Source of the DNA: Jimgerdemannia flammicorona | Lineage: Eukaryota | DNA: 32,715 nucleotides | Direction: 5' to 3' | NCBI GenBank assembly: GCA_003990765.1 | Contig: RBNJ01000338.1 | Location: 1 to 32,715, forward strand | Part shown: positions 1-30,586 of the stretch, one piece after another | Numbering within the stretch: position 1 is the stretch's first letter | How the letters are laid out: every line of letters starts with the position of its first letter | Position numbers and translations under genes: made by a program | The notes under the pieces: model-generated | What the model was told of the DNA's origin: nothing | Seen by the model: only the letters and a program-made list of their open reading frames with translations | Databases searched by the model: none

Positions 1-1580
1 TTTATAGTCACTTGGACTCCTTTATTCCACTAGTCTATAGAATTACACTATCCATGTATCTCATTGATTACCTTAGAACAACAATGAACTCATCCCTCTA
101 CTATTTAATAATAATACAAGGAAGGGCCCTTCAGCCTACACCTTCTTTTCACCTCACCCCCTTCTCACTAAGTACAAGGTACTCCTGACTCCTCTGGACA
201 ATGTCTAACACCTTCCTCATGGCCCCCAACTGGTGCCTCTTCTCCTGATACCACCACCCTTACACCACTTCCAAGAGCAACCCCTTCCACCACTCCACTA
301 ATTCTCCAATTCCCATCCAAGGATCTCTCTCGAACACCCATCACCAGTGCACTGCCATCAGCACCCAGATGCCAATAATCTGACCCAGGCCTCCCCATAT
401 GTCCCTAATTTCTCCCACCAGTTAATGCTTGATCACCCAACAAGTGAGGCCCCCTGCCTGCTCACTCTCTACTCCCCAATAACCTTCTAATGTCCACCAA
501 AATCCTTCAACCCCTGGGCAATCTGCCAGAACATACTCCGGTGTCTACACTACTCCCCCATCTAGCTCACAACACTACTCACACTCCTTTACACCTTCAT
601 CCACCATCCACCCCATCCTGTACCCCAGCATGACATTCCTCCACAAAAATCACTACCATACCACCCAGAACTTAGGTGGGGCTATTTTGAGTAGAGAGGT
701 CCCCCAACCCCAAACCCAGCCCCACTCTCACTCTTCTCCAAACCCAGCCTTCTGCCAACCAACTGACCACCTCTCGAGTGGTCCTATCCGGATCCACTCC
801 ATCACCCCAGTTAAAGAATATTCTACCAACAGGTGGCTGCCAATACAAATCACACCAAATTGCCACCATTACTGTTCTGGGTCCTCCTCTTCACCACTAG
901 GCTCTAGGCCCATAAGCCCTATTGCTAACCAAGCTTCTACAATACCCCACCAGAATTCCTGATAGCACAACCTGCCAACCTTTCCAACCTGGAGCAAACC
1001 TTGTATATCCTTCCGAATCTCACTCTAGGGGCAAAACCTAACTTCCCAATTGTCTATAGCCAGTTTGCTCCAACCCTCCCCTCCTAATTCTGCCATTCAA
1101 CAACCCCACCAGCCCCGAAGTATCTTCAGCTACCTTCTAAAGTCTACCAGCCTCAGACCTCCATCTGTCTTCAGTGTTACCATTATCTCCCAACTAATCT
1201 GTGATCTCCTTCCCTACCATAGCCATCCTTTGACCACCTTCTTCAGTTTCTGTACCACCTACCCTGAAAAGTCCAGGTGATATCCCAAGTACCACAGCTT
1301 CGGCAACTAATATACATTCAAGACTACAATCCTCCCAACCAAAGAGAATTCTCTCCCAGACCAGCCCACTAAGGCATTCTCTCACTTCTGTATCAATCCA
1401 CACCACCACTCTTTCAGCAGCACCATCCCATATATCAAGAACCAGATACCCAAATATTGAACTGTCTCCCCAGAACCAACTAAATGTCCAAAATGTCCAT
1501 ACTCCCCCAAGCCTGCTCCAAGCTCCATGGTCTCACACTTGCTCCAGTTCAGTTTTGCCCCTGCCAGCATCTCATACTGT
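1..1580 (-). mobile_element. L1/Tx1-like LINE, 3' half of ORF2 (end of RT, C-terminal zinc-knuckle region) and probable 3' UTR; decayed
   Basis: Minus strand reads QYEMLAGAKLNWSKCE...VQYLGIWF (end of a non-LTR RT), then FLWRNVMLGYRMG...KECE*C...EYVLADCPGVEGFWW (zf-RVT-like, frameshifted). Same G-rich sense composition as the LINE at 12197-16153, which it continues codon-for-codon. Confidence 0.88.
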
Positions 1581-4010
1581 AACAGCATATTCTTTCAATA
1601 TGTCCTTCCAGGATTTGAATACTGATTCCTATATAGACTTACTTGACTTCTCGGTTGGAAACTATAGCTTCTTCAGCTACATACAGGTCATATCTAGCTG
1701 CTTTTTGACTTCCTTTGGTTGGGGCCTTGGCAGTTTGTCTTAACTTGATAAAGTCCAGTATTCTGGTAGTTAGGTTATTGAGGTAGTGCAGAGTAGTAAC
1801 AGTTGCTCATATTGCTGTTCGGGGTTTTCAGTTGGGGCAGACACTGGCCATATATTCTGTCTTTCAGTAATAGAAGTATGCTCTGTTTCTTTGAAGTTTA
1901 TTTCTTTCTCCTTCAGTGAGTTTTTTGAAGGTACTCAGCTGGGTGGATTCATAATTTCTGGGTGTCCATGAGGTGGATGTGGAGGGAGCTTGGGATGCTT
2001 CATACTTGGGTTCATCTTTCTTGGTCCAAGTCTTTTCCTTATTATTGAATTGTCTTTAGGGCAGAATTAGTCCAGCTATTAGGATTCACTTGACCATAGT
2101 CTTGATTCTTGGTAGACACCATTATTGGTGATCACAACCAACTGGGCAGCCTTGTTCACAGATTTTTCTAGTAGGCCATTCAGGTAGGGCATTGAATAAA
2201 TGGTCTGCTCTTGTACTATTTCATGCTTCATCATTGGCAATATATCCTAGACCAACAGTATTCAGGAGTGACTTGAGTTTTGTGCAGAAAGTTTTGAATT
2301 CTTCTTTGCCATATATATCAAATTTGAGGTTGCAGAGTTTTACTTGAGATTCAGTAATTACAGTTTCACTGTGGTATTGAGCAATCATGAGTTGTTTGAG
2401 TCCAGGGGCTGTAGGATGGACTCTATATCCTGGGGTATTATTTGCTATATTCTGAGTGACTACAGCAGGTCAGGTGTCTCATGTGAGGGGTTTTTCAGGA
2501 AGAGTTCACCACCATTCTTTGGCAGGTCCTTGGAAGAATGTAACAACTTGGTGGACATAGGCTGTAATTATAGCAAAGAGTTGTTCCAGAGTATGGTCTT
2601 GATTATTTGTTAGGAGGTGATCAGCAACTCACTCATTTGTCCATTGATTGGCTTCAAAGTTGGTGTCAACTTCACTAATGAAGCTTTGGACTTCTTGTGT
2701 AGTACCATTGAAGGTAGGTAGGCTTAGATTTTTTGTAGGTCAGATCTGTTCAGCTAAGGCAGTAATGGTTGCTGCCATTATTGCTACCTGGGCTGTGAGG
2801 TCTAGAATCTGTTAGTTCACCATGTTGTTTACTGGAGGTGATTGGACTGCTAGTAGTGGTGTTACTGATACTACTTAAGATACTGGTACAGAGTGTGAGG
2901 GTGTTCTTTGGGTCTATATAAGTTACTGGAGTAATAGTTGCAGGTCTGGAGTAAGAGCTTGATAGATAGCTATTTGTTGCTGTATAGGTATGTTCTGTTC
3001 TGATAGAGGTGCATCCCCTTCAGTAGTATATCTGGGATCAAATGTAGTACTTAGTACCTTGCTGAGTTGAAATATAGTTACATAGTACAAGTGTGATCTA
3101 ATATATCAAGAGATCATCTGACTGCTGAGTTAGTTCATAGTCATATTGTACAAGGCTAATCTAACTATACTATGACTGCTAAGCTATTTATAGATTTAGA
3201 TGCTGTCTGGTTAGTCTTTGATGACATCACTATTGATGACATCATCTCTGACAAAGTCTGAGCAGTTTTCTAACTTCTGATATCATCAGTTTCAAGGTAT
3301 CATTACTTCTATCTCTTGCAAGATTAAGGCTATCCTTGGTAGCAGTGGTTGTACATATAAGGATAACAGGTCTTGGTTCTCTTTTTTTTTGGCCTGCTGG
3401 CATATTTACAAGGACTGGCCATCTTTGTCTAGGGCAAGGGCTCCCAATGTCGCAGCTGGGGGTTCAAACCTCTCAGAAATAATATTTTCTATAATCTAAG
3501 GCAATTTCTAGTAGTAATATCTATCATATAGATGACTTGAGATTGGTTTTGACAATATCAGCTTTCTTGAGTTTAGATGAAGTATCCATCATTCTCTAAT
3601 GGAGGTGACATAGATAGAGCAAACAAAGTTGTTCAAATATGTTTTGCTTCTACTAAGTAATGAGGTCTTATATAGTCATGATGTATCTTGGTCTTGAGTT
3701 TGATAAGTGCAGTTTATGAACTCTTGATAGATGAGATAGTGTCCTTCTTGTCTCAGTTTGAGTTTGATACTTTTGGTTTCCTTTTGTAATAGTACCATAT
3801 ACCAAACTAGTTATAGAGGTTCAGAGTCAGTCTTATATAGTACTTCTTCTGGTATTCTTGTAGCTTAGCGGTGAGTTCTCATGCTTGCTAGTATATTTTG
3901 TGTAACCAGATAATCTCTTCAGTAACTTGTTTTGTTGTCTCGCATGTGGTTTCCAAATTGGTTCTGAGGATAACATGCAATTTTGGTGGCTTGGAGGTTG
4001 TGTGCTTACA
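1575..4010 (-). mobile_element. Ty3/Gypsy copy A, 5' part: partial 5' LTR (type B), internally deleted gag, N-terminal half of dUTPase
   Basis: 1581-3040 is colinear with ~30815-32280 (gag and dUTPase of copy D). 3043-4010 matches LTR type B; its TGTAAG terminus is seen as CTTACA ending at 4010. Confidence 0.92.
3043..4010 (-). repeat. LTR type B (5' LTR of copy A), 3' ~520 bp lost by deletion
   Basis: Matches 17503-17748 + 20982-21227 + 21660-22136, i.e. the empty-site version of the interrupted LTR of copy C. Confidence 0.9.
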
Positions 4011-5070
4011 TCATTGTACAACTACCCCAAACTAAGAACAGAAAAGATGCAATTGTTATCTTCATAGACTATCTCCATAAATAAGCCCACTTTGTACCAA
4101 CTACTACTACTGCAATAGTACCAGATATAGCTATACTCTTGTTTGATAATATCTTCTACTACCATGGTCTTCTCAAGATCATTGTTAGTAACTGAGACCC
4201 AAAATTCACTAGCTATTTTTGGAAGCCCTCCATGTATACCTTAGAACAAAACTTATACTATCTATAGCCTTTCACCCTGAAACAGATGGCCAAACTGAAA
4301 AAATGAACTGAACTCTGGAACAAATACTAAGGAACTATATTTCCTACAGACAAGATGATTGGCATGAACACCTCACTGCAGTCGAGTTCACCTATAACAA
4401 TAGCAAGCAAGCTTCTCTTGGAATGACTCCATTCTTTACCAATACTAAACAAAATCCAAATATCTCTCTGATACTTATCCAAACCACTGATGAACCCTCT
4501 ATAGTCAAAGCTATTGAAGAATTCCTACTCTAAATATACAATCTAAACCAGATCACAATTAAGAATTTATTATGAGCTCAAGAACAACAGTTACAGTATA
4601 TTAACTAATATTATTGAGAAGAAACTTTTGATATTAGAGAAAAAGTTCTACTGGACATCTGAGGATACCAAGTTAATAACCTCAAACACAGACCATCTAC
4701 AAAGCTGAACAGTAAGTTTATTAGACCATTTGAAGTCATTATATAAGTCTCTCCTACTTCCTACAAATTGGTGCTATCAGACACTATTAGGGTTCATCTA
4801 GTCTTTAATATCTAATATCTTAAGCAATACAATAAAAATAATGATGAGCTATTCTCAAACCAAACTACAGAACCACTTGCACCTATCATTATCAATGACC
4901 AAGAAGAGTACAAAGTTGAACAAATCCTCAACAAATATGGCTGCAAGAACTACTCTGAGTACCTTATCAAATGAAAAGGTTACCTGATCTATAATGTAAC
5001 CTGGGAACCCAAGACCAATCTCCAGAATACCACTGACTTAGTTTAAGAATATGACTCCTTAAATAACTAA
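4011..5070 (+). pseudogene. Gypsy copy B integrase core and chromodomain (decayed)
   Basis: IVQLPQTKNRKDAIVIFIDYL, AFHPETDGQTEKMN*TLEQILRNY, KFIRPFEVI, EEYKVEQIL...YLIK*KGY...TWEP; homologous to 26926-27985 (-). Confidence 0.93.
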
Positions 5071-5485
5071 AACTGAATACCCTATATCTATCAGTACATA
5101 CTATATATTACTCTCCTGAACATTATAATTATCATGAACAAAATCAAGAACTCAGCAAGTCAAGACAAAAGAATACTAACCCTCTGGAAAAATAGCAAAA
5201 CTGAAAGCAAGCCTATTCTCCCTGTACCACTGGTAGGAAATGAGGTACAGACATTTAAGAAGATTCCTTAGAGGAAATTCTCCAGCAGTAAATGACATCA
5301 GAATCACTTTCGGTGCATAACATTGAACATATAACTCTTTAATATGTGAATCTAATACATTAGACAACTGTACTATAAGCATGTCACTTTCTGAAAAAAT
5401 TAGACCTTACCAGACTTTTGACCTCCCAAATGGTATAACAATACTAGAACAAAATTAGAAGACCCTGATGAGAATATTGAAAGCT

Positions 5486-5499
5486 AAGAAGGGGAGAGT
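5486..5499 (+). promoter_or_regulatory. Polypurine tract of copy B
   Basis: AAGAAGGGGAGAGT directly abutting the LTR start; same motif at 17320-17333 (+) and 26786-26799 (-). Confidence 0.9.
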
Positions 5500-7561
5500 T
5501 ATAAGTGTACAACTTCTAAGCCACAGAAATTACACATCACCCTCTGAATAAGCTACTGAAATCACATGCAACCTTTGAATAAATCTAGAAATCACATACA
5601 AGGTCACAAAGCTGAGTCAACATGAAGTCACAGCATACAAAGCTGAGTCAATACAAAGTCATGAAACACAAGATTTACACAAACTGAATCTTACCAATCA
5701 GGACCAAATGCATATATACCAAACATTGAGACATATTGAAATAGAGAACCAAAATAAACCAAACAAACAACTCCAACTCTTAAATATATACAAACATGAC
5801 CACTGAGATTTATAACTGCATCTATGCTGACATTTGGAATACCATTATCAACTAAGCCACACCCCCTCTATCTCTCATGAATATCCATAGCCTAGTACTG
5901 CTCTACTTCATAGAAGTCCAATGGAATGCTCTGAACATACTTAGTGAAGTCCACTAAATTAGACAAATCTCAAGCTACTACCAGATTGGCTGCCTTCTAG
6001 AAGATATAGTCAAACACCACCATAATATAGACATTACCCAGATGTCTCAACATCAGAAACTCATTGCTTGCAAACATCAAGAACTCTTCTATGAGTATAG
6101 TACTGTTATTTCCTGCCTCCGAGTCACTACCACTGAAATGGTTACTACTCTATCCTATGGCCAAATAGATGATATAATACAAGAACTCAACTATAAGTAC
6201 CTTGAGTACATTCAAACCACAGATAGAACCTTCCTACATCCTGATGACCATATCCTGCAAATGCCTCAAGTCAGATATACTATGAAGGATATCTATAATA
6301 TAATCTGATTTGATGAAGATGAAGCAGAAGACAATGATTCCTCTGACACTGATATGACCTCAAGCCAAGGATCCCTGCTAACCCTGATCACTCTACCAAC
6401 CTTTCTGATGAACTTATAATAGTTCATAACCACCTATGAAACTTATTGGGACAATGACCATTAGTATGAATACTAATCTGTGTTTACTCCTAATTACTTC
6501 AACTATAATGAAGAGACTGGAGAATACAATCTGTACCTTCAGACAACTCTTGAGATTGAACCAACCACCCCATCACCCAAGTATAAACAATATGAACCAC
6601 AGCTACCAGCTTACTACAATCCAGCAACTCATAGTACTGTAACTTATAGAAGATATGTAGACAGTGAATCTGATAAAAGTAAAGATGATATACCCCTCCT
6701 TTACCTACTAACATCTTACTCAGCATAGATGATGCTATTCTGTGGGATGGTGATGAAGTCCTAATATATTATTACCTCAGTAAACAAGGAGAGTTAATCT
6801 GTAAATAACTCTTCCTAGATGACTACTTCATCAGAGATGATGTCATAGATGGTGATATCATTGAAGACTACCCAAACAGCATCTAAATCTATAAATAGCT
6901 TAACAGTCATAGTATAGTTAGATTAGCTTAGTATAATATAACTATGAACTGACTCAGCAGTTAGATGATCTCTTGATATATCAGATCATACTTGTACTAC
7001 ATGACTGCATTCCAACTCAGCAAAGCACTAAGTACTATATCCATATTCAGCATAGTCTAGATAGCCCCTCACTTGTATAAATACCCCTTCCCTAGACCTC
7101 AGAATCTCAGACTCAAATACTCAAGAACACTCCTGATTACTTCTCCACAATACCCCTTCACACAACTACTCCTAGTATAGCAATATCATAAATAGCAAAT
7201 AAATCTATTTCATAACCCACAAATCACTCTTAAGTAAATTCACTCTCCATTAGGTCCCACTCCTAACCCTATTATAAATTTTTCTAATTGAGTATTGTCT
7301 GCAGCAATATGCCAATTCAACTAAGCTGGTCTTAGTTTCTTAAACTTCCTGAAATATGGAAAATCCTAAACATCCAGAACTAGTCCAAAAAAGGGACTTT
7401 GGTTGAGATATCATCTGATCTTAAAATCAATAAGCATAGAGGACATACTCTATATGAAATTAATCTCAACCTTAAGAGAATGGTCTTTCATAATATCTAG
7501 AACTTCTAGAAACCCCTTTCAGAACTATGTAACAGTTATCCTAACAAGTAACCCTCTTATA
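5500..7561 (+). repeat. LTR type A (3' LTR of copy B), ~2.06 kb
   Basis: Follows the PPT; termini TATAAG...CTTATA are mutated TGTAAG...CTTACA; colinear with 18249-20288 and 24731-26785. Confidence 0.92.
5796..6886 (+). pseudogene. LTR-encoded ORF, copy 1 (decayed; unknown protein)
   Basis: MTTEIYN...EDYPNSI* homologous to 18505-19602; several stops and small indels. Confidence 0.75.
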
Positions 7562-9547
7562 ATACTCATCTCTACACCCATCATCTCTATACTTTAGGAA
7601 TTTATAAGAAAAAGCAGCAAAAGGAAGCAAACTATTGTAGTTGAGATTCCATACTGATCAGGTTGTACAACTACCAATAATAAGGACAAAAACAAGACCA
7701 TACCTGTCACTTTCACTATTCTCACTATGGATGATAAGAGTGTAGATAACAGGAATATGGATGATAAGGATGGAAAATACAAGAATATGGATGATGAGGA
7801 TATAGAGAATAATAACAAGGATATGGATAATGATGATGAGTATATGGACAATAAGTTTATGAATAATGATGATGACAATGAATAATGACAATGATGAACC
7901 TCTACCTGACCTCTCTGCTTTTATATACCTCAAACACAAGAAGCCTTTTTACTCAAAGTCTGCTCTTCCTAAGTATTTCAGATCTATTCTTAAAGTCTTC
8001 AACCTCTTCTTCTCTGATGAGATACTAAAAATAATTGTTGCCAACATGAATCACTATACCACAATAAAGATAGAGGATTCTACAACTGATAGAGAGTAGA
8101 AGATTTTAACAGTACCTGAACTCCTTATCTTCATTGCTATTTGTATTTACTTCAGCCTTTTCTGCACTGAAGGAAGCCTCAAGTGGCAGTGGGATATAGA
8201 TCTCCAAAAGCCAAAACACTACATTCTTGAGTATATGTCTCTATTTTGCTTCCAACAAATCAAATGATTCCTTCATATTTCCCTATATAACATATATAAT
8301 AATGATTACTATATAGTGAAACTCAAGCCATTATTATCTCATATTCGAAAAATATCCCAAACAATATATTGACTAAGTTCCAATATGTCCATCAACAAGA
8401 TGATACAGTTCATGGGCAGAAGCTTACATACTTACTATATACAGTTTAAGCTGATCTCAAAGGGTTATAAGGTCTTTATATTATATGATCATGGTTATAT
8501 ATAGACATTCCTTCCAGATTAATATACTACTAAAAGCAAAGAGATAGAGAATAACAACAATAATAAGTTTGGTATAATAGCATGTACTATGATTTATCTA
8601 GTCAAATAATTATCTAAGACTCAAAGATTCAACATCTATATAGACAGATACTTCTCCAGTATTCCACTATTCAAATATTTATAATCGAAAAGAATTGGGG
8701 CATACAGAATAGTTAAAATAGATAGAACACAATTCCCAGAGAAACTCAAAATTAAATGTAGCAAAGAGAAAGAGCTCAACTAGAATATATTGTCAGGGGT
8801 GATCATTGATAATATTCTAGCATTACTATGAAAGGATACCTCTGTAGTCAAAATGCTAACTACTATCTATAAATTGCAAGGAGTAGAATGGAAAATCAAG
8901 TACAAATGATGATATCTGATAATAACCAAAGCTAACAAAACTCAAGTCTAAGCAATCTGGGAAAACAAATATTCTATAGATGTTGAGATTCTAAAGATTA
9001 TTAATAATTACAACCATTACATAGGAGGAGTCAACATTGCCAACCAACTCTAAGTATATTACTATACACAAATTAAAGCCAAAAGAAATTGGTAGCTGAT
9101 ATTCTTCTGGTTGTTGGATATTATAGTAATTAATTCATATCTTGTATACAAGACAGACAGGTCTAAGACTGACCACAAAATCTCCCAACTTGACTTGACT
9201 TAGGGCCTCATAATGCTAGTAGATAAGAAAGAAAAAGGAATGGAAATGAGAAAGATATACATGAAGAACAGATGCTATCAAACTCTAAATATCTAAAGAA
9301 CCTTCATATTACAAAAAATTCCTATGATTTAGATCCCTCTCGACTTCTTCCTAGTAACCATTTACCTACTATAAGAGACCAGCATGAGGCATACATATGG
9401 TGTCAGTCATAAGTAAAGACTGGCAAAATCACAATTAGCAAAAAGAACCCACCCCAGAGCAATATCATCTATCAAACATGCAATGCTATTCTTTGTCTGA
9501 ATTAAGAGCAAAACTGTTTTGTAGAATATCATACTCAGAAAGAATAG
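7562..9547 (+). pseudogene. piggyBac-family (DDE_Tnp_1_7 / PGBD-like) transposase relic; 5' end displaced by Gypsy copy B
   Basis: Acidic N-terminus; FNLFFSDEILKIIVANMNHY; ELLIFIAICIYF; MSLFCFQQIK*FLHI; FMGRSLH...KGYKVFILYDHGYI; IDRYFSSIPLFKYL; YNHYIGGVNIANQL (GGVDxxDQ); FFWLLDIIVINSY; C-terminal Cys-rich TCNAILC...CFVEYH. Stops and frameshifts present. Confidence 0.9.
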
Positions 9548-9616
9548 GTATGTTAATGATCAGTGAGCAGGTAATATATATAATATAATAAAGTAGAACC
9601 TCACTAATACTGATAC

Positions 9617-9682
9617 TTATCTATTCTGAATCTATCTCAAATCTATTCCAAATCTATTCCAAATCTATTCCAAATCTATTCC
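9617..9682. repeat. 11-bp tandem repeat AAATCTATTCC (4 perfect copies, 2 degenerate)
   Basis: Perfect units at 9639, 9650, 9661 and 9672, between the convergent transposase and kinase 3' ends. Confidence 0.9.
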
Positions 9683-9696
9683 AGAGTACACCAGTC

Positions 9697-11612
9697 TTAC
9701 CTGATCATAGACTTTGCTTGAAGCTCTATTTCTTTTCCATCGCTGAGGTACTGATGGCCACTAATCTTGCCAAGACAATATTGGACATGGTTAGGTATAT
9801 TATTTGGAAATAGCTACATATTTGCAAATAGTATATATATATTTCATATAGTCAACCAAAACCCAATAAGGCAGTACTCTTTATTATATTCTGAAGGAGA
9901 TGGTTGTTATCACACTTTTGTAGCAATAAAGTTATAATAACAAAATGCAGTTAGCCATTTATTGAAATCAATCTTCATAAATATTATTGATAATTTTACA
10001 AATCTTATCCTCATCATCTGCTATAGGTATACCTAGTATAAGCCTCTTTGCTAAGATGTGTTTATGAGATAAAATTAAAGAATTTTTAAATGAAGCTAGT
10101 ATTGTAGTACTGATATCTAGTCTTGATTTGCCTTTCATCTTATCCATTAACAGTTGAAGATATAATGTTTTCCACAGCTATTCTATATATACCTTATACA
10201 GAGCTTTATGCTGGTCCAATACTGCTACTGGCAGCTTATTATTGTAATTTTTATGATATAGTACTGAGATGAGAGCCTTGACATCTGAAATTTAGACAAA
10301 CACCAATAGTCCTTTTACCTTCAGTCTTTTGATAAGGAGAGCTAGAATGGATGTATCATATTTCTTTTCAATCTTGAGTTATCAAAGATAGTAACAGATA
10401 TCTGTTAAGCATTGTTTAGAAAAAAAAAAGGTAAAAAAGTCATTAAGTCTACTGATAATACAATTATGCAACCTCCTAAATTATCTCTGAAAGTAATACA
10501 AAATCTATTTTTATGATGAATCTGAGAGAAATAGAAATTTACATAGATTACATACCTTCTTTTATCACTCCAAATACATATACACTATTAATACTGATTA
10601 ACAACATCTCTTTTACTAACTGAAGGCACCCTTTACAAACCCAGTAGTTCTCTCACCAACCTTTGAATAGATAATTCAAGCCTGTCATACTCACCTTATC
10701 ATAATAGGCACATTCATTACTATCTGACATTCTCAACCTCTTGATAATATTGGTTTTACCTATATCTAGTATCAATGATTGCTTTGGTGATTCATTTATC
10801 TTCCATAGCTCCTTAATTTCAATAAATGCTATGCAAAATGTATAAATGTCAGGACAAAGTTTCAGATCATATATTAGACCTCTAAGAATCAAGTCTTCTA
10901 CTGATATGTACAGATATAGGATCAGACCAAAAATGGTTCTATAGTCATAGAGATATCTCTGGTATATAGCATTCATCTTTTGTGTCTCATCTCATGGTGA
11001 ATTGTAGATCAGTAAGACATATAGCATAATGGATAGGATCCAGATGTTAGCTGTAAATAGGATATAATCTAACTAATGACCATCAACTAATTTGAGTGAT
11101 TTATATGCAGGCAAACCAAGTACTGGCCATACTATGTTACTTTCAATATTAACTGATATACTGAAGTTACAAAGTATAATATGCAAACCTTCTGCACTAG
11201 ATTTGAATAGTAAATTATCATACTTAATGTCATAGTGAGCAATCTTATTATTATATAGATATAATATTACATTAAGGAGCCCTCTGAAGATGATGAGAAT
11301 GAGTTTTTAAAGGTCAGCCTCTTCTTTTATTTGATCGATAAGATCAGCCACTAGTCCTTCAGCATACTCCATCTTGATTGATGTGAAATCTCTAGTCAAA
11401 TATACTTGAGAAGTTTATATGATATTGAGGTAATTGAGTTTAAGAAGTAAGTTCATCTTACATTTAATTATGGTGATGTCAAATAGTATGGCACCTTTTC
11501 TACTTAATATCTTGACCACATATATCTCTCCATTCAGTTGACTTCCTTTGAAGACCACACCATAACTTTCAACACCAAGTTTGTCAACCAGTTTGACTCT
11601 TTTACCTATCAT
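9697..11612 (-). pseudogene. Two-exon Ser/Thr protein kinase pseudogene with C-terminal Cys-rich extension (exon 1 11612-10556, exon 2 10401-~9697)
   Basis: Kinase subdomains in one frame: LGVESYGVV (GxGxYG), YVVKIL, MEYAEG, IAHYDIKYDNLL (HRDIKxxN), LCNFSIS (DFG), GLPAYKSLKL, ANIWILSIMLY (DIWSLG). Frame continues through WVCKGC to a GTATGT donor. Exon 2 runs ~140 codons with few stops despite high AT. Kinase part is secure; exon 2 is less certain. Confidence 0.8.
10402..10555 (-). other. Predicted 154-nt spliceosomal intron
   Basis: Donor G|GTATGT at 10555, T-tract, CTAAAC/CTTAAC branch-like sites, acceptor AACAG| at 10402; splicing gives in-frame ...KE-D-ICYYL. Confidence 0.6.
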
Positions 11613-11739
11613 CTTGCCTTTTCAAAATTTGGTCCAAATGTTTTTAATGACCTGACTAGTTATTGTAAAATGGAAAACTAAAAAATATGCAAATTAAACA
11701 GTAATTAAAAGGTATACAAAAAAGACAGACAAGAAAATA

Positions 11740-11740
<1 letters not shown>

Positions 11741-11831
<91 letters not shown>
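11741..11831. repeat. Poly(A) homopolymer, ~91 nt
   Basis: Uninterrupted A run ~130 bp upstream of the kinase ATG (poly-T on the kinase sense strand). Confidence 0.95.
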
Positions 11832-11833
<2 letters not shown>

Positions 11834-12196
11834 CCAAAAATATATATATCTTGAAATCTTAAGGATGCTGAGTATAAAGATGTTGAGGAATGTAAAAACA
11901 TTAGGAAGTATAAGGAAGCTTACAGCTTAAGGAATAGGGCATAGTTTATAGTAAAAAGTTATGAGGAGCATAATATTTGGAGGATTATTAGGAGTAATTG
12001 TAGATAACAAAGATTGCTAGAGAGAGTTGACTTTTTGCTTGAACCATTCAGAGCAAGCTAAGCCACACGGACATCTTTTCATGACAAGCAACACATTTTC
12101 AAGTTTTCCCATCATCTATTCTGGTGTATAAGGTGTGGCAGGAGTCTAGCTACAGCATACAATAAGTCTCATCTGTTTCGGTGGAGTTTTTGTCAG

Positions 12197-13949
12197 ATGG
12201 CAACCCAGGGTTCATCAAGCTCTGAGCATTTGGAGAGAAGGAGGCCTGGTCTGGGTCTCCCTAAGAGTTTTGCAGTAATGGTTGGGGCTGGTGGAGATGT
12301 AGGGGCTGGTGTAGGAGCTAGAGGAGCAGGTAGTCAGGAGAGACAGGCTGGCATTGAGAGTTGGCACATGGTGATGGGGGGCAGAAGGGTGACTATTAGG
12401 CCCATGGGGGCAGGGCAGGGAGGACATAGTGTTGACAGGGGTAGGAGTCAGGTGACCAGCCAGGTGACTGGTCAGGTGACTGGTCAGGTGCCTGCCAGGG
12501 GCCAGGGGTCTGGAAGTGGTGTGGCTGGGACTGGTATTCCTGGGGCTGGGCCAGTGGCTAGGGTGACTGCTGGAGTGTCAGAGAACAAGAAGAAGGCAAC
12601 AATGGCAGCAGGTTCTGATGAACTGGTGGTGCGTCCCTTCTTCCACAAGTCAGTGTTGATGTGGGCCATTTCAGTGAATTTTTTGGGGCTAGAGATGTCT
12701 GCTAGAGAGGTCTTGCAGCTAGTGGGAGAGGAGATTGTAGGGGCAGAGTCACTGAAGTTCATCCCATCAGTGGAGGTAGTTGAGATAGGATTTGTTGAGA
12801 AGGAGGAGATGGTGAAGGCCCTGGAGAAAGGGCTGGTCATCAAGAGCATCAAGGTTGGCATGATGAGGTGCCTGAGGTGGGACCCACAGGTAGTGTAACT
12901 GGTGGTTGAAGGGCTGCTAACATTGGGGAGACAGGAGACCAAAGGAATGGTGGCAGAGGCACTGGGGGCATTTGGTGAGATGGTTGACTTCAGATTCATG
13001 TTCTGGGAGGGGACCAAGCTGAGGAATGGCAATTACGAGGTGATGGTGAGACTGGAGGGCAAGGAGGCCATAGGGCAAGAGAGGAACTGGCCAGAAGTGA
13101 TTCGTATTGGAGGGCAGGAGTGCAAAGTGTGGAGAAGGAAGGGTTCTGAATAGAAGGAGGAAGAGGTGGTAAAGGGCAAACTGGGAGCACCTGCAGACAG
13201 TCCTCCAGGGCTCGAAAAAGGAGGAAAAGGAAAGAGCAGAGATGGCCAAAAATCAGATAGAAGAGGTGGAGACAGCTGAGGTGTCCTTTTCACAACTAGG
13301 GGGAGTGGAGAACTTCACTCATGTACCAGTAAAGGGGGAGTGGGCTGATAAGGAGGAGGTGAATATGGGGGGCTTTGAGGAAGTGATTGAGGTGGTACTG
13401 GAGACCCAGTTGGAGGATGTTTGTATGGCTGGAGCAGCAAATGTTCATTGGGAATACCCAGAAGCAGGCAAAGTAGTTTGGCTAGAGAAAGGCACTGAGA
13501 AGGATGACCTGGTGGATGTGGCTTCTGATGTATCGGCAGATAGAGAGATGCTATAGGAGCTGAGCAGGACCCTAAGGCCAGCCACTCCTGGGCCCATGGT
13601 GATGACAGTGGATGACTGGTATCAGACAGTGCTCAAGGAACTTGCAGAGGAGGATATCAAGAAAGTGGATATATTTAATGGATCACAGAAGGCCTGGGAA
13701 GGGTTCCTCAATGTGGCATTGTAGGGGCCGAAGTTAGTGACAGCGATGGTGGTAGCACTTCTGGATGATGAAGGATATGAGATAGATGAGGACCATATGG
13801 CTGATATCAGGAGAGTGGTATCAAAGCGAGTGGATGCCTTCTGCAGTAGTGTGAATAGAGCCTGCATCTGGAGGGCTATCTGCAAGGAATAGAAGGCAAT
13901 AATCTGCAGTAGGGCCAAAAAGGTGGTGGCAGCTCCAGCTGAGCTTTAA
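12197..13949 (+). pseudogene. LINE ORF1 (probable RRM-type nucleic-acid chaperone), decayed
   Basis: Long near-open frame (KSFAVMV motif, Gly-rich linker, VEIGF...ALEKGL, EALGAFGEM...PEVIRIGG) directly upstream of APE-RT ORF2; contains a 12-bp CAGGTGACTGGT tandem at ~12449-12490. Confidence 0.75.
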
Positions 13950-13961
13950 ACATTTATATTC

Positions 13962-16153
13962 ATGATGATGAACAGTCTACATATATTATCACTAAATGTC
14001 AATGATTTGCATGATGGAGTGAAGTGAAGGCATTTGTTTCAGTAGTTGAAGAACAGGAAGTATGATGTGGTATTTCTGCAGGACATTCAGGCCTATGGGG
14101 AGCAAGATTATGAGGAGTGGAGCAAGGAATGGTATAGTAGTACAGGGTGGAATGAGCAGGTGGGCATCTTGGTTGGCTTGGGGAGAGGAGAGCTGAAAGA
14201 GGTTGAGATATATAGTGATTGATTGATCTGGGGGAGATTGAAAGGAGGAGCTGGCAATGGATTGATGGTTGGCTCTGTGTATATATTGGCAGTTGGCAGG
14301 GAGCGAAACCAGTGGGTGGAAGGTTGGCTAGATTGGGGAGGCTGAGATAAGATTGGGCTGGATATTCTGGAAGGGGACTTCAACATGGTGCATGATAGGA
14401 CATTAGATAGATCGGATGATGGAGTCAGTGTGGTAGTATCCACTGGGCTCTCATGATGGCTTCAAGCTGAGAAGGAAATGAGATTGGTTGATGGAGTATG
14501 ACAACATTGTGGTGAGAAGTTAGGGCCATTTACTAGATGGCATCCGATTGGTGAGAATTTGGTTAGGATGAAGATTGACTGGATCCTAGTAGCAGAATAC
14601 TGGGGTAATATTTTGGATTCATCAGAGGTATGGTGGTGTCCCTGGTCAGATCACTGAGGTGTAGAGGTGTGTGGGAGATTCTAGGCAGCCAGTGGCAGCG
14701 GAGGCAGATGGTGACTTAATGTGGCACTACTCAAGAGACAGGTGGAGCAGGACAAGTTTGTTAAAATCGCAAGACAGGAAGTAGCATGGTGGAAGAACAG
14801 TAGCCAGTCAATAGCACAGTAGTGGGGAAAATTTAAACATCTAGCAGGTGCATATTGGCATAATGTAGGAGAGGTAGCTGGAAGAGAGCAGAAAGATAGA
14901 GAAAGGAGAGTGGAGCAGGGGCTTCACTGGTGGCTAAAACTTCTAGAAGGAGAGAATTCCTCAGGAGAACAACACTCTCTATTGATCAAGGAGGTGGCAG
15001 AGTTGTGGTCAGATTTGAAGGCAGCAGAAGATAGGGTGGTAGATGGGTTGCTGGCAAGATTGCGAGCAAAGCAGTTGGAAGAAGGAGAGCAACCCACCAA
15101 ATACTTATCTGGAATCTTGAAGGCTAGGAGAGTGTGGCACAGCTGGGCTTTGGTGTTATGAGAGGATGGAACAGAGGTGATGGATATTACAGATATGCTT
15201 GGGGAGATCTCTGGTCGATAGTACTCTCTATGGTAGGATGATGGAGGGCTGATAGAGAGAGAGGCAGCACTGGAGGATATCAACAATTTGGTTGGCAGCT
15301 GGCCAGTGGTGGTAGAGCCTGCAATTGGCAGAGCAGTAATGGGTAGGGTGACCCTTGAAGAGGTGTTGGAGGTTCTGAGGAAAGTGTAGGTGGGCTCATC
15401 ACCAGGGGAGGATGGACTGCCCTGGGAGTTCTGAAAGGAGTTTCAAACTGAGTTTGGGGCATGGCTCATGGAAATGGTAAACTTTATGCTGGGGGAAGGC
15501 TGCTGGATTGGCAATAGCTCCTTGGGACTAGTCTCTCTGCTCTATAAGGAGAAAGGGGACAGATGTGTGTGGCAGAACTAAAGGCCCATCATGTTACTGA
15601 ATATGGATAGGAAGTTGGTCTCCAAGATTCTGGCAGGGAGAATGCAACAATAGATTGGCAGATTGGTTGGTGAGGAACAGCAAGGGTTTGTGAAGGGGAG
15701 ACAGATTCGAGACAGTACAGCCTGGGTGCAAAATGTTTTGGAGGATTGTAGAAGCCAGCAAGTAGATGGAAGAATGGTGTTCTTAGACCAGAAAAAAGCT
15801 TATGACAGAGTGAGATGGAACTACTTGGAGGCAGTTCTATGGAAGGCTGGGTTTGGCATGGGGGAGGCTCAAAAACTGATGGGTCTGATGTGAGATTGCC
15901 AGGCTGCAGTGCTGATGAATGGGTGGAGTGGCCCGGAGTTTTTCTTAGGGTGAGGAGTGCCACAGGGGGATCCTCTCTCACCCCTGCTTTATATTTTATC
16001 TTTGGAGCCCTTGTTGGCATGGCTGAAGGGGAGGCTCACTGGGTTGAAGATGAGGGAGGTGGTCTGGAAGCTGGGGGCCTTTGTGGATGACATGGTGGTA
16101 GGGTTAGGCAGTGTGGAAGATGTGGCGAGCTTGCAGGAAGGGGTAGGACAGTA
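13962..16153 (+). pseudogene. LINE ORF2 5' part: APE endonuclease and RT up to just past the catalytic FVDD, cut at the inversion breakpoint
   Basis: SLNVN, VVFLQD, GDFN, KIDWIL, WSDH (APE); SPGEDGLP, PIMLLNMDRKLVSKIL, QQGFVKGRQI, FLDQKKAYDRV, PQGDPLSPLLY, AFVDD (RT). Confidence 0.95.
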
Positions 16154-17502
16154 GCCTAGTATTGAAAGGACTCTCAGTAGAAAGAGGAGTCATTGATGAA
16201 GATTATATAGACGAAATTATTATTCTCATCTGAAACCATAGTTGGACACCCTTCAAGATCCCCATTGGTTTCTGCATTATCTAGATTCTATTTAAGAAAA
16301 TCAAGTCAACTCTAACAGTCAAGGAAGTTCCTGAACTACTGCCTACCATTTGAGGATCCAAAGGATTTGGCTCATCAAACAAGGCCCCAGTCCAACCTAC
16401 TATGACCAAGGAAGAACAATTCTATAAAAAGATCAAAGATAGATATATACCAAGTAGCTGATGCCTCCATGGTATTGGAATATACTCTTCCTGAATGATT
16501 GATGATTGCTTCTCTTATGTCAATGAACTGGCTCAAAGAAGAACCAATAGAAGGAAAGCTCTTACAACCAAGATCACCATCATTGGATCAGACAAACTAC
16601 TTATACTTCAAGCTTTTGTCAACTGAGTATCTGTCAAGATTATGATAGACAGTAGTGTCTCAGGCAACTTCATCAATGACAAAACAGCCAATAGACTTAA
16701 GGTCTTTACCTCTCCAGTACAATAAACTCAAGCAGTTGCCACAGCTGATGGAACCTCACATGTTATTAGCAAGGAAGTCTGCAATCTGCCCTTCTGAATT
16801 GGTGACTACTGAGTATATAATACCCTCTAGATCATACCACTTCCTGACAATGAAATCATCCTTGGGACTCTATAGTTGAAACAAGAGAACCCTATGATTG
16901 ATTGGGTAAACCATTTTCTGACCATTAAGAAAGAATGCTACAACTTCAAACTGCAAGATGAAAAAGACACACTCAGTTCTAGTGACCCTGGATCAAGGAT
17001 CACCCACATCAATAAGCTACAGCTTAAAAAATTGGCCAAGAAATGTCCTCTCTTTGCCATCTCTATCTGTCCATCCAAAGAAGAACAAGAACTCTGAAGA
17101 AAACTTTTCCAAAGTTGATAGCCATATTAGACCCTTACTCTAGAAAGTCTGAGACACATTTTTGAACCAAACCACAGAACCATCTGCACCTGTCATTATC
17201 AATGACTAAGAAGAGTATGAAGTTGAACAAATCCTCAATAAACATAGTCACAAGAACTATCCAAATGGTACAACAACACTAGAACAAATTAGAAGGCCCT
17301 GACAAGGACATCGAAAGCTAAGAAGGAGAGAGTTGTAAGCGCACAACCTCCAAGCCACCAAAATCACATATTATCCCTAGAATTAATTTGGAAACCACAT
17401 ATGAGACTACAAAACAAGTTACTGAAGAGATTATCTGGTTATACAAAATATGCCAGCAAATATGAGAACCTACTATCAAGACACAAGAATACCAAAAGAA
17501 GT
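16148..17502 (+). mobile_element. Gypsy copy A, 3' part: C-terminal half of dUTPase, protease, deleted RT-RH-IN, chromodomain stub, PPT and first 169 bp of 3' LTR (type B)
   Basis: SSLVLKGLSVERGVIDEDY, GSKGFGSS (dUTPase); MIDSSVSGNFI (protease); jump at ~17160 to EEYEVEQIL; jump at ~17262 to the 3' region; PPT 17320-17333; TGTAAG at 17334. Confidence 0.92.
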
Positions 17503-18504
17503 TGTAAGCATACAACCTCCAAGCCACCAAAATTGTATGTTATCTTCAGAACAAATTTGGAAACCACATGCAAGACTATAAAACAAGTTACTGAAGAGAT
17601 TATCTGGTTACACAAAATATGCCAGCAAGCATGAGAACCCACTGCCAAGATACAAGAATACCAGAAGAAGTACTATAACCATAAGACTGACTCTGAACCT
17701 CTATAATTAGTTTGGTATATGGTACTATTACAAAAGGAAACTGAAAGTTAGCTCCTTTCTCTGCTACCTTACCAATCACAAGGTTTGGTAGGCAACCTTC
17801 CAAGTCCCCTTTCCCCTAATATTACCCCCTCTACCTTGGGTTGGTTTGCTGTGCCTGCAGGGGCATGGTGGGAGGAGGGCAATGGTGATGAGTTGCCCCT
17901 TTATCAGTGTCAGATCGGTACTTCCTCCACTTTTTCGCATATTCTGGTGCCTTCCGCTGCATCTGGGGTATACCCATTTTGGTGCAGTGCCTTCTTCCTT
18001 TTGCCATCGCCAACAAGGAGTTGTCTTGGTATGTCTCGGGCTACGTAGAGAGTCGGCCAACCTTGGGCATCAAGTGCTCAGTATAGGTTACCTGCAGGTC
18101 CTCGGTGCCTGTGGTGGGGCCCTCTGGCTTTGGCAAGCTTCCCGGCGAGCGCAGTTCTGGCATAGGTGACTGCTTTTCGGGTGTTGTCGGGATGGGAGGG
18201 GAGATGGCCATCACAGATAGGCAGAAGGGTGATTACAGTGATCAGTAGTGTAAGCACACAATCTCCAAGCCACCAAAATTATACGTGACCTCCAAACAAA
18301 TCTGGAAATCACCTGCTTGATCACAAAGCTAAGTCAAACTGAAGTCACAGTGCACAAAGATGAGTCAATATGAAGTCATGGAACACAAGAATTACATAAA
18401 TGGAATCTTACCAATCAGGACCAAATGCATATATACCGAGCACCAAGACGCATTGAATCAGAGAACCAAAACAAATAACAACTAGAACTTCCAAACACAC
18501 AAAC

Positions 18505-19602
18505 ATGACCACTGAGATCTACAACCATATCTGCACTGACATTTGGAATGCCATTGTCAACCGAGCCACACCCTCTCTGCCCCTTATGAATATCCATAGC
18601 CTGGCACCCCTCTACTTCGTGGAAGCCCGATGGAATGCTCTGAACATGCTTAGTGAGGCCTACTGAATCAGACAAATCTCAAGCTACTACCAGATTGGCC
18701 GCCTTCTGGAAGACATGGTTGAACACCACCATGATACAGATATTACCCAGATGTCTCGACACCAGAAGATCATTGCCTGCAAACATCGAGAACTCTTCTA
18801 TGAGTACAGTACCATTATTCCCCACCTCTGAGTCACTACCAGCGAAATGGTTGCTACCCTGTCCTATGGCCAAATCAATGACATGATACAAGAACTCAAC
18901 CACAAGTACCTCGAGTACGTCCAGACCACAGACAGAACCTTCCCATACCCTGATGACCATATCCTGCAAATGCCCCAAGTCAGATACGCTATGAAAGATG
19001 TCTATGATATAATCCAGTTCGATGAAGATGAAGCAGAAGACAACAATCCCTCTGACACCGATATGACCTCTAGCCAAGAACCTCTGCCAACCCTGATCAT
19101 ACTGCCAACCTTGTCGATGAACTTACAACAGTTCATAACCATATACGAGACTTATTGGGACAATGACCACTGGCACGAATACCAACCTGCATTCACCCCT
19201 GATTACTTCAACTACAATGAAGAGACCAGAGAACACAACCTGTACCTCCAGACAACTCTCGAGATTGAACCAACCACCCCACCACCTGAGTATGAGCGAC
19301 ATGAACCACAGTCGCCAGCTTACTACAATCCTGCAACTCATAGTACTGTAACCTATAGAAGGTATGCAGACAGTGAATCCGACGAAAGTGAAGACAATAC
19401 ACCCATTCTTTGCCCACTAACACCTTATCCAGCCTACGAGACAGATGATGCTATTCTGTAGGATGGAGATAAAGTTCCAATGTATTATTACCTTAGTGAA
19501 CAAGGAGAAGTAATCCATGAACCATTATTCTTAGACAACTATTTCATCAGAGATGATGCAATCAATGGTGATATCATCAAGGACTACCCAGACAGCGCCT
19601 AA
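18505..19602 (+). pseudogene. LTR-encoded ORF, best copy (365 codons, 3 internal stops, no frameshift; unknown acidic protein)
   Basis: ATG 18505 to TAA 19602 in one frame; each internal stop is a sense codon (CAA, CGA, TGG) in another LTR copy. Confidence 0.82.
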
Positions 19603-19791
19603 ATCCATAAATAGCCTAGCAGTCATAGTATAGTTAGATTAGCTTTGTATGACGTGACTGTGAACTGACTCAGCAGTCAGATGATCTCTTGATATGTCAG
19701 ATCACACTTGTACTATGTGACTGCATTCCGACTCAGCAAAGCACTTAGTGCTACACCCATATTTAGCATAGTCCAGATAGCCCCTCACTAG

Positions 19792-19930
19792 TATAAATAC
19801 CCCCTCCCCCAGACCTCAGAATCTCAGACTTGAACAGACTCGAATACACAAGAACATTTCTGAATACTTCTCCACAATATCCCTTCACACAACTACTCCT
19901 AGTATAGAAATATCATGAATAGCAAATAAA
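19792..19930 (+). promoter_or_regulatory. Putative LTR TATA box (TATAAA 19792) and poly(A) signal (AATAAA 19925)
   Basis: Both motifs are conserved at equivalent positions in all four complete LTR 3' halves. Confidence 0.6.
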
Positions 19931-21227
19931 CCTATTCCATAACCCACAAACCACTCTTAAGTAAATCCACTCCCTATTAGGTCCCACTCCTAACCCCATT
20001 ATGAAATTTCCTAATTGGGTATTGTCTGCAGTGATATGCCAATTCAACTAAGCTGGTCTTAGTATCTTGAACTTCCTGAAATATGGGAAATCCTGAACAT
20101 CCAGAACTAGTCTGAAAAAAGACTTTGGTTGAGATATCAACCCAATCTTGAAATCAATAAGCATAGAGGACGTACTCCATATGAAATTGATCTTGACCAT
20201 AAGAAAACGGTCTTCCAGAATATCCAGAACTTCCAGAAAACTCTTCCAGAACTATGTAATGGTCACCCTAAAAAGTAACCCTCTTACAAGTAGGGTGCCA
20301 GGCTGGGGGCGGTCATTGGGGCTAGGGCAGATGCTGCTTTGGTGGGGCCTTTTGATTGGTGTGGCATGGTTAGGTAGTAGGTGTCACTATCGGCTTCTTT
20401 TGGCGGTCAGCGGGGTTGGGCCCCAGTCATCAGGGGGGGTCGGGAGGCCTGAGGCTACCTATTTCAGGCATCTTGGCTGTACTCAACTGGAACCGAGAGC
20501 TGACACAGCAATGTGATCGAGGCCCACAGGCTTGAGTAGTGGGGTATTGGGGGTTTCCTCCCACCTCACATGTAAGTCCTTTACTTACCTCAACTGAGAG
20601 AACCAGGCCCTACCCACTATGTTGTGCTTTGATGAGGGTTTTTATTTGCCTGTCATTCTCTTTGGGGTGGCAGGGGCTATTCTATTCGGCTCGGGCATAG
20701 TCTTGTACATATGTTGGGTTCTCAGGCATGCGCTTTCAGTCATTCGTGTATGGTTGGGTTTCCCCTGGTAGTAGGGAGAGCATGGTGTGCAGAATGAGGT
20801 GCGAGCTTATCAGCCCTGCTGCATCTAGCCTGCTGGACAATAGCTAGCCTAGGTTAATAGGGGGGCAGTGCTTGGTGGGTGGTGGGGGAGGGTTTTGGCC
20901 TATATAGTCTAGGTTCTCTTCCAATAAAAATCTGCAGGACATGAGTCCGTTAAACAAAAAAAAAAAAAGGAAACTGAAAGTACCAAAATCAAACCAAGAC
21001 AAGAAGAACTCTATCTCATCCATCAAAAGATTTATAAACTGCACTTATCAACTCAAGACCAAGATATACTGTGATTATATAAGACCTCATTACTTAGTAG
21101 AAGCAAAACACATTTAAACAACTCCATTCACTCTATCTGTGTCACCTCCATTGGAGAGTAACAGATGCTTCATCTGAACTCAAGAAAGCTGACATCGTTG
21201 AAACCAATCTCAAGCCATCCATATGAC

Positions 21228-21651
21228 TAGTGCTCCCAAATGAGTCAAATCAATTCAAATTGAATTGAATTGAGGGTTAAATGAGTCAAATCGAATTGGG
21301 GATTTTTCCATTTGAATCAATTCGAATCAAATCAAAAGTCAAATCAAATTGAGGGTCTGATTCGAATCCTAATTTTCAAATTGCAATAACTCAGCATAAA
21401 CTCATCCAAATCTAACATACTTTAGCTTGTTAGAATCACATTAATACAGTGAATCTAACAAGCTAAAATATGTTAAATTTGGATGGGTTTTCGTCGAGTT
21501 ATTACATTTTGAAAATTAAGGTTTGAATTGAACTTTGAATTGAATTGGATCTTTGATTTGATTTGAATTGAATCGAATTGGACCCTTGATTCAATTGAAT
21601 CGAATCGAGTTTGGGCCAAATTTGATTTGATTTGATTTGTTGGGAGTACTA
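21228..21651. mobile_element. hAT-type MITE, 424 bp, fold-back structure
   Basis: TIRs TAGTGCTCCCAA / TTGGGAGTACTA; 8-bp TSD CATATGAC (21220-21227) / CACATGAC (21652-21659); subterminal pentamer arrays; empty site at ~3523-3530 (-). Confidence 0.9.
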
Positions 21652-22660
21652 CACATGACTGATATTACTACTAGAAATTGCCTTGGATTACAGAAAATAT
21701 CATTTCCAAGAGGTTCAAACCCCCAGCCATAACATTGGGAGCCCTTGCTCTAGACAAGAATGGCCAGTCCTTGCAAATATACCAGCAGACTAAAAAAAAA
21801 GAGAACCAAGATCTGTTATCTTTGTAAAACCACTGCCACCAAGGACAGTCTTAATCTTGCAAAAGATAGAAGTAATGATACCCTTGAAACTGATGATGTC
21901 AGAAGTCAGAAAACTGCTCAAACTTTGCCAGCAATAATATCATCAATAGTGATGTCATCAAAGACTAACCAGACAGCATATAAACCTATAAATAGCTTAG
22001 CAGTCATAGTATAGTTAGATTAGCCTTATATAACGTAACTGTGAACTGACTCAGTAGTCAGACAATCTCTTAATATATCAGATTACACTTATACTATGTG
22101 ACTGCATTCCGATTCAGCAAGGCACTAAGTGCTACATCCATATCTAGCATAGTCCAGATAGCCTCTCACTAGTATAAATTCCCTCTCCCCCAGACCTCAG
22201 AATTTCAGACTTGAACACACAAGAATAATTCTGAATACTTTCCCACAATATCTCTTTATACACTACTCCTAGTATAGCAATATCATGAATAGTGAATAAA
22301 TCTATTTAATAATCTACAAACTATCCTTAAATAAATCTGCTCTCCATTAGGTCCCACTTCTAACCCCATCACAAAATTTCCTAATTGGGTATTGTCTGCA
22401 GTGATATACCAATTCAACTAAGCTGGTCTTAGTTTCTTGAACTTCCTGAAATATGGAAAATTCTGAACATCCAGAACTAGTCCAAAAAAGAACTTTGGTT
22501 GAGATGTCAATCTGATCTTGAAATCAATAAGTATAGAGGATGTACTCTATATGAAATTAATCTTGACCATAAGAAAATGGTCTTCCAGAATATCCAGAAC
22601 TTCCAGAAAACCCTTCCAGAACTACATAATGGTTACCCTAAAAACAACCCTCTTACAACT

Positions 22661-26785: not shown

Positions 26786-26925
26786 ACTCTCCCCTTCTTA
26801 GCTTTTGACATCCTCATCAGGGCCTTCTAATTTTGTTCTGCTGAGTTCTTGGTTTGGTTTGCAATAATTATAATGTTCAGGAGGATAATATATAGTATGT
26901 ACAGATAGGTGTGGAGTATTTCGTT

Positions 26926-29900: not shown

Positions 29901-30370
29901 GAGATGGCGAAGAGAGGGCATTTCTTGGCCAATTTCTTGAGTTGTAGCTTGTTGATGTGGGTGATCTTTGGTCCAGGGTCACTAGAATTAAGTGGGTCCT
30001 TTTCACCTTGCAGTTTGAAGTTGTGGTGTCCTTTCTTGATGGTCAGAGAATGGTTTACCCAATCAATCATGAGGTTCTCTTGTTTTAACCATGGAGTTCT
30101 AAGAATGATTTTATTGTCAGGAAGTGGTATGATTTGGAGGGTAACATGTACTCAGTAGTCATCAATTCAGAAGAGTAGATTGTGGACTTCTTTGCTAATA
30201 ACATGTGAGGTTCCATCAGCTGTAGCAACTGCTTGAGTTTGCTATACTGGAGAGGTGAAGACCTTGAGTCTGTTGGCTGTCTCTTCATTGATGAAGTTGC
30301 CTGAGGCACCACTGTCTATCATAATCTTAACAGGTGCTCCATTGATAAAAGCCTTAAGGGTGAGCAGTTT
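26926..30370 (-). pseudogene. pol: pol: aspartic protease, RT, RNase H, integrase, chromodomain
   Basis: MIDSGASGNFI; GFIRPSISPYGAPVLFVVKK; MPFGLTNAPATFQ; VYIDNIL (YIDD); TDTSDLALGAVL, NYATHEKEML; CHDAPTAGHLG, FYWPRM; ISMDFIVQLP; AFHPETDGQTER; GPF; EEYKVEQIL...YLVKWKGY...WEP. Confidence 0.96.
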
Positions 30371-30586
30371 GTCTGATCCAATGGTGGTGATTTCAGTTGT
30401 AGGAGCCTTTCTTCTATTGGTTCTTCTTTGAGCCAGTTCATTGATACAAGAGAAGCAATCATCAATCATTTGAGAAGAATACATTCCAATACCATGAGGG
30501 CATCAGCCACTTGGTATATATCCATCTTTGATCTTCTTGTAGAATTGTTCTTTTTTGCTCATGGTAGATTGGGCTGGGGCTTTGTT

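Follow-up and report, generated by a model that had tools for sequence, protein, structure and literature searches.

A probable old inversion through a 6-bp inverted match between a LINE and a Gypsy retrotransposon in Jimgerdemannia flammicorona DNA

Mobile elements of the window and the two LINE/Gypsy junctions

A 32,715-nucleotide stretch of Jimgerdemannia flammicorona DNA (assembly GCA_003990765.1, contig RBNJ01000338.1, positions 1 to 32,715; hereafter the window) was analyzed, in which a long interspersed nuclear element (LINE) and a long terminal repeat (LTR) retrotransposon of the Gypsy type are each split into two halves. In the 32.7-kb window, decayed eukaryotic mobile elements are nested within AT-rich DNA. 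The LINE is G-rich, and its parts lie at 12.06-16.15 kb on the plus strand and at 1-1574 on the minus strand. A single Gypsy family is present in several copies within the window; copy A is split, and copy D serves as the intact comparator. The context was judged to be nuclear, repeat-rich, and eukaryotic by its LINE, Gypsy, piggyBac, and protein-kinase content.

The Gypsy family is a Ty3/Gypsy LTR retrotransposon with a dUTPase. Its LTRs are about 2 kb long, start with TGTAAG and end with CTTACA, thus having the TG...CA ends of the class, and are accompanied by 5-bp target duplications. The dUTPase (PF00692, E 6.2e-29 by Pfam in copy D) lies upstream of the protease and the reverse transcriptase (RT). 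Protease, RT, RNase H, integrase, and chromodomain families are carried by the relatives of this family, and the nearest named ones are from Closterium, Chara, and land plants, with 38-49% identity. The nearest relatives of the LINE are metagenome proteins. When the LINE is compared with the L1/Tx1-like type, which combines an apurinic-type endonuclease with an RT, the RVT_1 domain is clear, and the endonuclease match is below the cut-off: Exo_endo_phos was weak in the LINE 5' half (E 9.7e-4, 19.4 bits, against a curated cut-off of 24.5). Homologues bearing PF03372 align from their residue 1-7.

The LINE and copy A are joined to each other at two places, J1 on the left and J2 on the right. At each junction, an RT half of the LINE abuts a dUTPase half of the Gypsy element, and the two elements share the same sense orientation across it. 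The junctions are marked by ACAGTA at 16148-16153 and by its reverse complement TACTGT at 1575-1580. The plus strand reads GGGGTAGG ACAGTA GCCTAG at 16140-16159 and CATCTCA TACTGT AACAGC at 1568-1586. These coordinates and sequences had been given in a first-pass annotation of the window and were the same when the sequence was read again. The annotation had also described two reciprocal junctions with one shared 6-bp inverted match. The inverted overlap determined by script was exactly 6 bp, and the adjacent bases differ on either side. Self-comparison of the window found no inverted repeat at either breakpoint. The further claim that ectopic homologous recombination is inadequate to explain the junctions was borne out, since there is no longer homology at the breakpoints and the bases flanking the hexamers, compared by eye, match at 2/8 positions on one side and 1/8 on the other.

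The overlap was then set against chance. Among 400,000 random break pairs in this window, an inverted overlap of at least 4 bp was found in 2.0% and of at least 6 bp in 0.19% (P = 0.0019). The hexamer itself is not enriched, with 22 copies of ACAGTA in the window and 21.97 expected. A reading of ACAGTA as a recombination signal sequence-like or integrase-end-like motif was dropped, given its chance frequency and flanks that share nothing.

The halves of each element on intact relatives

The halves were mapped separately onto natural intact relatives, and the un-inverted sequence was not constructed. For the Gypsy element, the left half at 1575-3043 matched copy D at 30811-32279 with 87.3% identity, and 16150-17160 of the right half matched copy D at 30814-29802 in reverse with 86.5% identity. 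Copy D is continuous across the site, and the two halves meet on it without gap or loss. This agrees with the earlier claim that no bases were lost relative to copy D; no base is missing or added relative to the intact relatives of either element.

The protein level comparison gave a similar picture. In the left half, PF00692 was found within 1576-1740, where profile positions 3-46 fall on residues 4-47 of 55; extended to the junction, this corresponds to about position 54. In the right half, profile positions 55-128 begin at the first residue of 16153-16392. The halves thus adjoin on the Pfam dUTPase profile at about 54 and 55. Ten dUTPase-bearing homologues were compared by blastx, and six were matched by both Gypsy halves. 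In three of these six (P0126, P0133, and P0136), both alignments extend to the junction and meet on a single common residue.

The LTRs of the two halves were also compared. The LTR start beside the left half (4010 to 3769) is 91.9% identical to the one that lies downstream of the right half (17503-17748). This is the closest LTR pair in the window, with the other pairs at 78-89%, and it upholds the earlier claim that copy A has matching LTRs at both ends. The left LTR at 3042-3785 is collinear with 20965-21226 and 21655-22137. Both Gypsy halves therefore bear one LTR type in opposite orientation, as expected of one flipped element.

Copy A is itself a reduced copy. About 2.7 kb of copy D (29802-27132, including most of the RT, RNase H, and integrase) is absent at 17160/17165, and about 200 bp (27041-26839) is absent at 17262. 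At 3042/3043, the left LTR fragment abuts internal sequence from about 740 bp beyond the LTR end. Directly after the 3' LTR of copy A, which extends to 22658, come a primer-binding-site-like TGGTAGCAGCAG and the internal region of copy C. A single LTR therefore seems to serve both copies, in an LTR-internal-LTR-internal tandem. Copy C is truncated at 24730, at the 3' LTR end of the oppositely oriented copy D.

The closest Gypsy polyprotein relative in the database, P0121, is 82.6% identical to the right half and 91% identical to copy D, and it matches the right half only. P0121 comes from a 3.6-kb contig and starts three residues past the equivalent of the breakpoint (window 16162). This start near the breakpoint is most likely a contig-end coincidence.

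For the LINE, Pfam RVT_1 was found at 15237-16154 on the plus strand, covering profile positions 6-166 of 205 (E 1.4e-21), and the frame ends in ...EGVGQ. The minus-strand frame from 1579 starts with QYEMLAGAKLNWSKCE and continues the RT. When the LINE 3' half was searched alone against Pfam, no family was found. The GC skew at 1-1574 is reversed compared with 12-16 kb, in keeping with its position on the other strand.

Metagenome contigs were searched with the final 66 RT residues as the query, and 66 loci were obtained. One of these, L001, is a close relative of the LINE with 70% amino-acid identity, and its 1063-bp contig is uninterrupted across the site. By blastn, window positions 15702-16123 aligned to L001 15-436 with 68.1% identity over 423 positions, and window positions 1578 to 1104 on the minus strand aligned to L001 463-937 with 68.1% identity over 479 positions. 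Ungapped extension places both hexamer copies on L001 461-466. In a four-sequence MAFFT alignment, the site is gap-free, and AGTA is invariant in all four sequences. The first-pass annotation had named LINE halves of different subfamilies as a sign against the inversion; the two halves diverge equally from L001, which argues against separate subfamilies.

Distant relatives were compared by blastx. Among 13 distant LINE protein homologues, the 5' half matches all 13 and the 3' half matches four. Both halves reach the junction for P0015 only, where they meet at residue 711. The features of the window are collected in Table 1, in which the LINE start at 12062 is approximate; it is the start of the first long open frame, and the real 5' end was not located.

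Table 1 Coordinates of the LINE, the Gypsy copies, and the two hexamers in the window.
Feature	Position	Strand	Basis
LINE 3' half: C-terminal RT part and downstream open reading frame 2 (ORF2), decayed, many stops	1..1574	-	L001 alignment, blastx to P0015, GC skew
Left 6-bp microhomology copy, TACTGT on plus strand, J1	1575..1580	.	sequence
Gypsy copy A 5' internal part, gag region to N-terminal dUTPase half	1575..3043	-	87.3% identity to copy D 30811-32279
Gypsy copy A 5' LTR, internally deleted, begins TGTAAGC at 4010	3042..4010	-	LTR matches
Gypsy copy B 3' half and LTR, passenger within the putatively inverted segment	4013..7559	+	matches copy D 27983-24733 reversed
LINE 5' half: ORF1-like frame, endonuclease region, N-terminal three quarters of RT	12062..16153	+	RVT_1, blastx, L001
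Right 6-bp microhomology copy, ACAGTA, J2	16148..16153	.	sequence
Gypsy copy A 3' internal part: dUTPase C-terminal half and protease	16154..17333	+	86.5% identity to copy D 30814-29802
Gypsy copy A 3' LTR, same type as 5' LTR, broken by nested insertions, then copy C	17334..22658	+	LTR comparison
Gypsy copy D, intact comparator, uninterrupted through breakpoint site 30809-30814	24731..32715	-	self-comparison, Pfam, alignment

Inversion of the segment and alternative origins

Judged from the sequence, the segment at 1575-16153 (14,579 bp) is probably a genuine and evolutionarily old inversion, in which the breaks would have been rejoined losslessly through the 6-bp inverted microhomology with both elements passive. 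A single inversion of 1575-16153 accounts for both junctions. Each interrupted element is exactly restored when its halves are combined, as indicated by the reciprocal junctions and by the comparisons with L001, copy D, Pfam, and P0126, P0133, and P0136. Transposons insert intact, and the present arrangement is therefore the derived one. The two dead transposons act as built-in rulers, by which the inversion can be reconstructed to the base without an outgroup.

Before the event, a complete LINE would have stood on the minus strand and Gypsy copy A on the plus strand about 9 kb away. With ACAGTA on the sense strand of each element, the two hexamers would have been mutually inverted. The chromosome would have broken at both hexamers, and the ends would have been rejoined crosswise via the 6-bp match. 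The outcome would be a flip of the intervening DNA, with one hexamer at each junction and no base lost or gained. The most likely chemistry would be one of two. The breaks may have been staggered, with overhangs within part or all of the hexamer that were ligated as cohesive ends; overhangs placed in the hexamer would make all four ends mutually cohesive. Alternatively, a crossover-like exchange may have taken place in a 6-bp heteroduplex.

That staggered or cohesive ends would be needed is deduced from end-resection geometry and not from a tool result. A blunt break leaves the match on only one side, so deletional joining cannot yield this product. Because the hexamer and every flanking base are kept at each junction, blunt breaks with deletional microhomology joining are ruled out. 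The invariant AGTA in the four aligned sequences indicates that the match belonged to both families from the outset and did not arise by fill-in duplication. The pattern excludes homologous recombination, staggered-break fill-in, and deletional microhomology joining, and the event is not homologous recombination. A lossless 6-bp exchange narrows the chemistry to cohesive or staggered ends or to a crossover in 6 bp.

Several observations weigh against this reading. On the LINE side, three of the four homologues matched by both halves (P0014, P0024, and P0029) extrapolate to offsets of 3-4 residues; their alignments end short of the junction, and a 4-residue gap that MAFFT places downstream of the junction could explain the offsets. 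In a MAFFT alignment of the two LINE fragments among 12 homologues, a gap splits off the three final residues of the 5' fragment; the ungapped register at these residues was assigned by us, and the LINE junction rests instead on the blastx and L001 comparisons. A target-site duplication of the LINE was not found, and its 3' end is not recognizable in the window. Local alignment of 1-135 (minus strand) with 11833-12200 gave a score of 16, below the mean of 18.7 for shuffled sequences, and 462 of 500 shuffles equalled or exceeded the real score. On the Gypsy side, the alignments of the other three of the six homologues (P0216, P0217, and P0230) end early, with offsets of 5, 1, and 1 residues. 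Copy D reads ATAGTA where copy A reads ACAGTA, so the native second base of copy A rests on parsimony. Finally, an exact search of the metagenome contigs with a J2 30-mer gave 0 matches.

This last result, by which a second copy of J2 was not found, would fit an assembly artefact, in which the flip was introduced by the assembler or by chimeric reads and is absent from the actual chromosome. Such an artefact is improbable for reasons of how assemblies fail. Assemblers flip sequence between long inverted repeats, and none is present at these breakpoints. A chimeric read gives one junction, not two exactly reciprocal junctions 14.6 kb apart, and a 6-bp repeat is far under any assembly word length.

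Equally improbable is an enzyme-catalyzed conservative exchange, either by subunit exchange of a type II topoisomerase or by a mobile-element recombinase or transposase acting at two cryptic sites with a 6-bp core. A perfectly conservative exchange with an identical 6-bp core in both partners is the signature of such enzymes. Tyrosine recombinases use 6-8-bp overlaps, and the present case resembles their site-specific recombination in having an identical core of this size, ACAGTA, at both sites. It differs in that inverted binding arms similar in both partners are not present; the cores are without symmetry or shared arms, and the flanks match at no more than the 2/8 and 1/8 positions given above. 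The segment is bounded by TGT...ACA, as in the LTR ends of the Gypsy family (TGTAAG...CTTACA), but three shared terminal bases are trivial by chance. Moreover, the 22 occurrences of ACAGTA in the window, the number that chance predicts, are without other exchanges. No recombinase gene was found in the parts scanned with Pfam, which were targeted regions of the window. The sole DNA-transposase relic seen is piggyBac-like and lies deep inside the segment, and the piggyBac family targets TTAA. If the exchange had been catalyzed, other lossless reciprocal exchanges at short identical cores, again between unrelated repeats, should be present in the genome.

The 6-bp microhomology at the junctions would also be compatible with replication-based template switching, that is, fork stalling or microhomology-mediated break-induced replication primed at the hexamer. 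Such switching usually yields non-reciprocal products with duplications, deletions, or inserted filler. Here the junctions are strictly balanced, with no loss, gain, or duplication of sequence at either one, which makes this origin even less probable than the two above. Microhomology-mediated end joining was compared in the same way. The 6-bp match lies within its usual length range and exceeds its minimum of at least 2 bp. However, microhomology-mediated end joining deletes one microhomology copy and the sequence between that copy and the break, whereas both junctions here are lossless.

The putative old conservative inversion was further compared with the known classes of inversion. Passages of PMC7584159 distinguish ectopic recombination between repeats, clean 'cut-and-paste' with end joining and without duplications, and staggered breaks with inverted duplications. 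In the same passages, break-and-rejoin inversions of Drosophila are attributed to non-homologous end joining without end duplications (citing Wesley and Eanes 1994), and precise junctions of induced two-break rearrangements are described in PMC10709867. The present case falls in the 'cut-and-paste' end-joining class, with unusually clear lossless microhomology. It is a new example, and the kind of event is known. As in that class, unrelated sequences were broken twice without long inverted repeats, there are no end duplications, and the product is balanced. In contrast to that class, both junctions share one 6-bp match with nothing lost, which indicates cohesive or staggered ends, or a crossover within the 6 bp, rather than blunt joining. 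A further difference from the Drosophila cases is that the ancestral state is read from split transposons and not from an uninverted relative.

A variant of this class, in which clean blunt breaks were precisely rejoined and the 6-bp overlap is a coincidence, has precedent in the precise two-break rejoining into inversions described in PMC10709867 and PMC7584159. Since overlap of this length arose in so few of the random break pairs (0.19%), it is as doubtful as template switching.

Staggered-break inversions, for which PMC7584159 outlines isochromatid and chromatid models (Ranz et al. 2007 and others, as cited there), also place one short sequence in inverted copies at both ends of the segment. 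In that model, the repeat is made by fill-in and is absent ancestrally. In the present case, each intact element requires one copy of the hexamer, which therefore pre-existed at both sites. The duplication that defines staggered breaks was not seen, as the hexamer position is filled and gap-free in the intact relatives of both elements. A likeness is also found in the short-inverted-repeat inversions of organelle genomes (plastomes: PMC8486006, PMC8438982), in which a match of only a few bases, in inverted orientation, likewise gives a reciprocal inversion. Unlike those inversions, the present one lies in a nuclear, repeat-rich context with old, decayed elements.

The origin with the least to recommend it, two independent chimeric retrocopies made by RT template switching between LINE and Gypsy RNAs at the hexamer, would account for the sense-to-sense joining at both junctions, but it can practically be set aside: the left Gypsy half is preceded by an LTR with a true 5' terminus (complete U3 start TGTAAGC at 4010), the genomic RNA template of LTR elements being without the LTR 5' terminus; two switches at exactly reciprocal positions are very unlikely; and the LTRs of both halves pair with each other.

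A lossless inversion of 1575-16153, as a single event, adds one example to a known class and cannot decide the chemistry. It would be of greater interest only if many such lossless exchanges were found genome-wide.

Other elements nested in or near the segment

The 3' LTR of copy A is interrupted by a GC-rich insert (17749-18248 and 20290-20964), in which a solo Gypsy LTR sits at 18249-20289, giving a three-level nest. The solo LTR is complete (TGTAAGC...CTTACA, about 2.04 kb), with AGTAG on both sides as a 5-bp target-site duplication. Upstream, at 17334-17683, a unit of about 170 bp with the LTR start is tandemly duplicated, with 85% identity between the units and a polypurine tract before the first. 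Further downstream, 269 bp at 21310-21578 match their own reverse complement at 78%. This sequence lies within an LTR insertion of about 430 bp (21226-21655), defined relative to the LTR fragment at 3524-3527, and could be a foldback or miniature inverted-repeat element.

Deep in the segment, a decayed piggyBac-type transposase was found at 8100-9398 on the plus strand (Pfam DDE_Tnp_1_7, E 6.6e-25, profile 35-349 of 349). A protein-kinase fragment at 10908-11621 on the minus strand (Pfam Pkinase, E 8.2e-20) lies in AT-rich DNA, contains three in-frame stops, and is probably a pseudogene. An unbroken run of 91 A occupies 11741-11831 on the plus strand, some hundreds of bases upstream of where the LINE 5' region lies; it may be the tail of a different retroelement or a feature of a target site.

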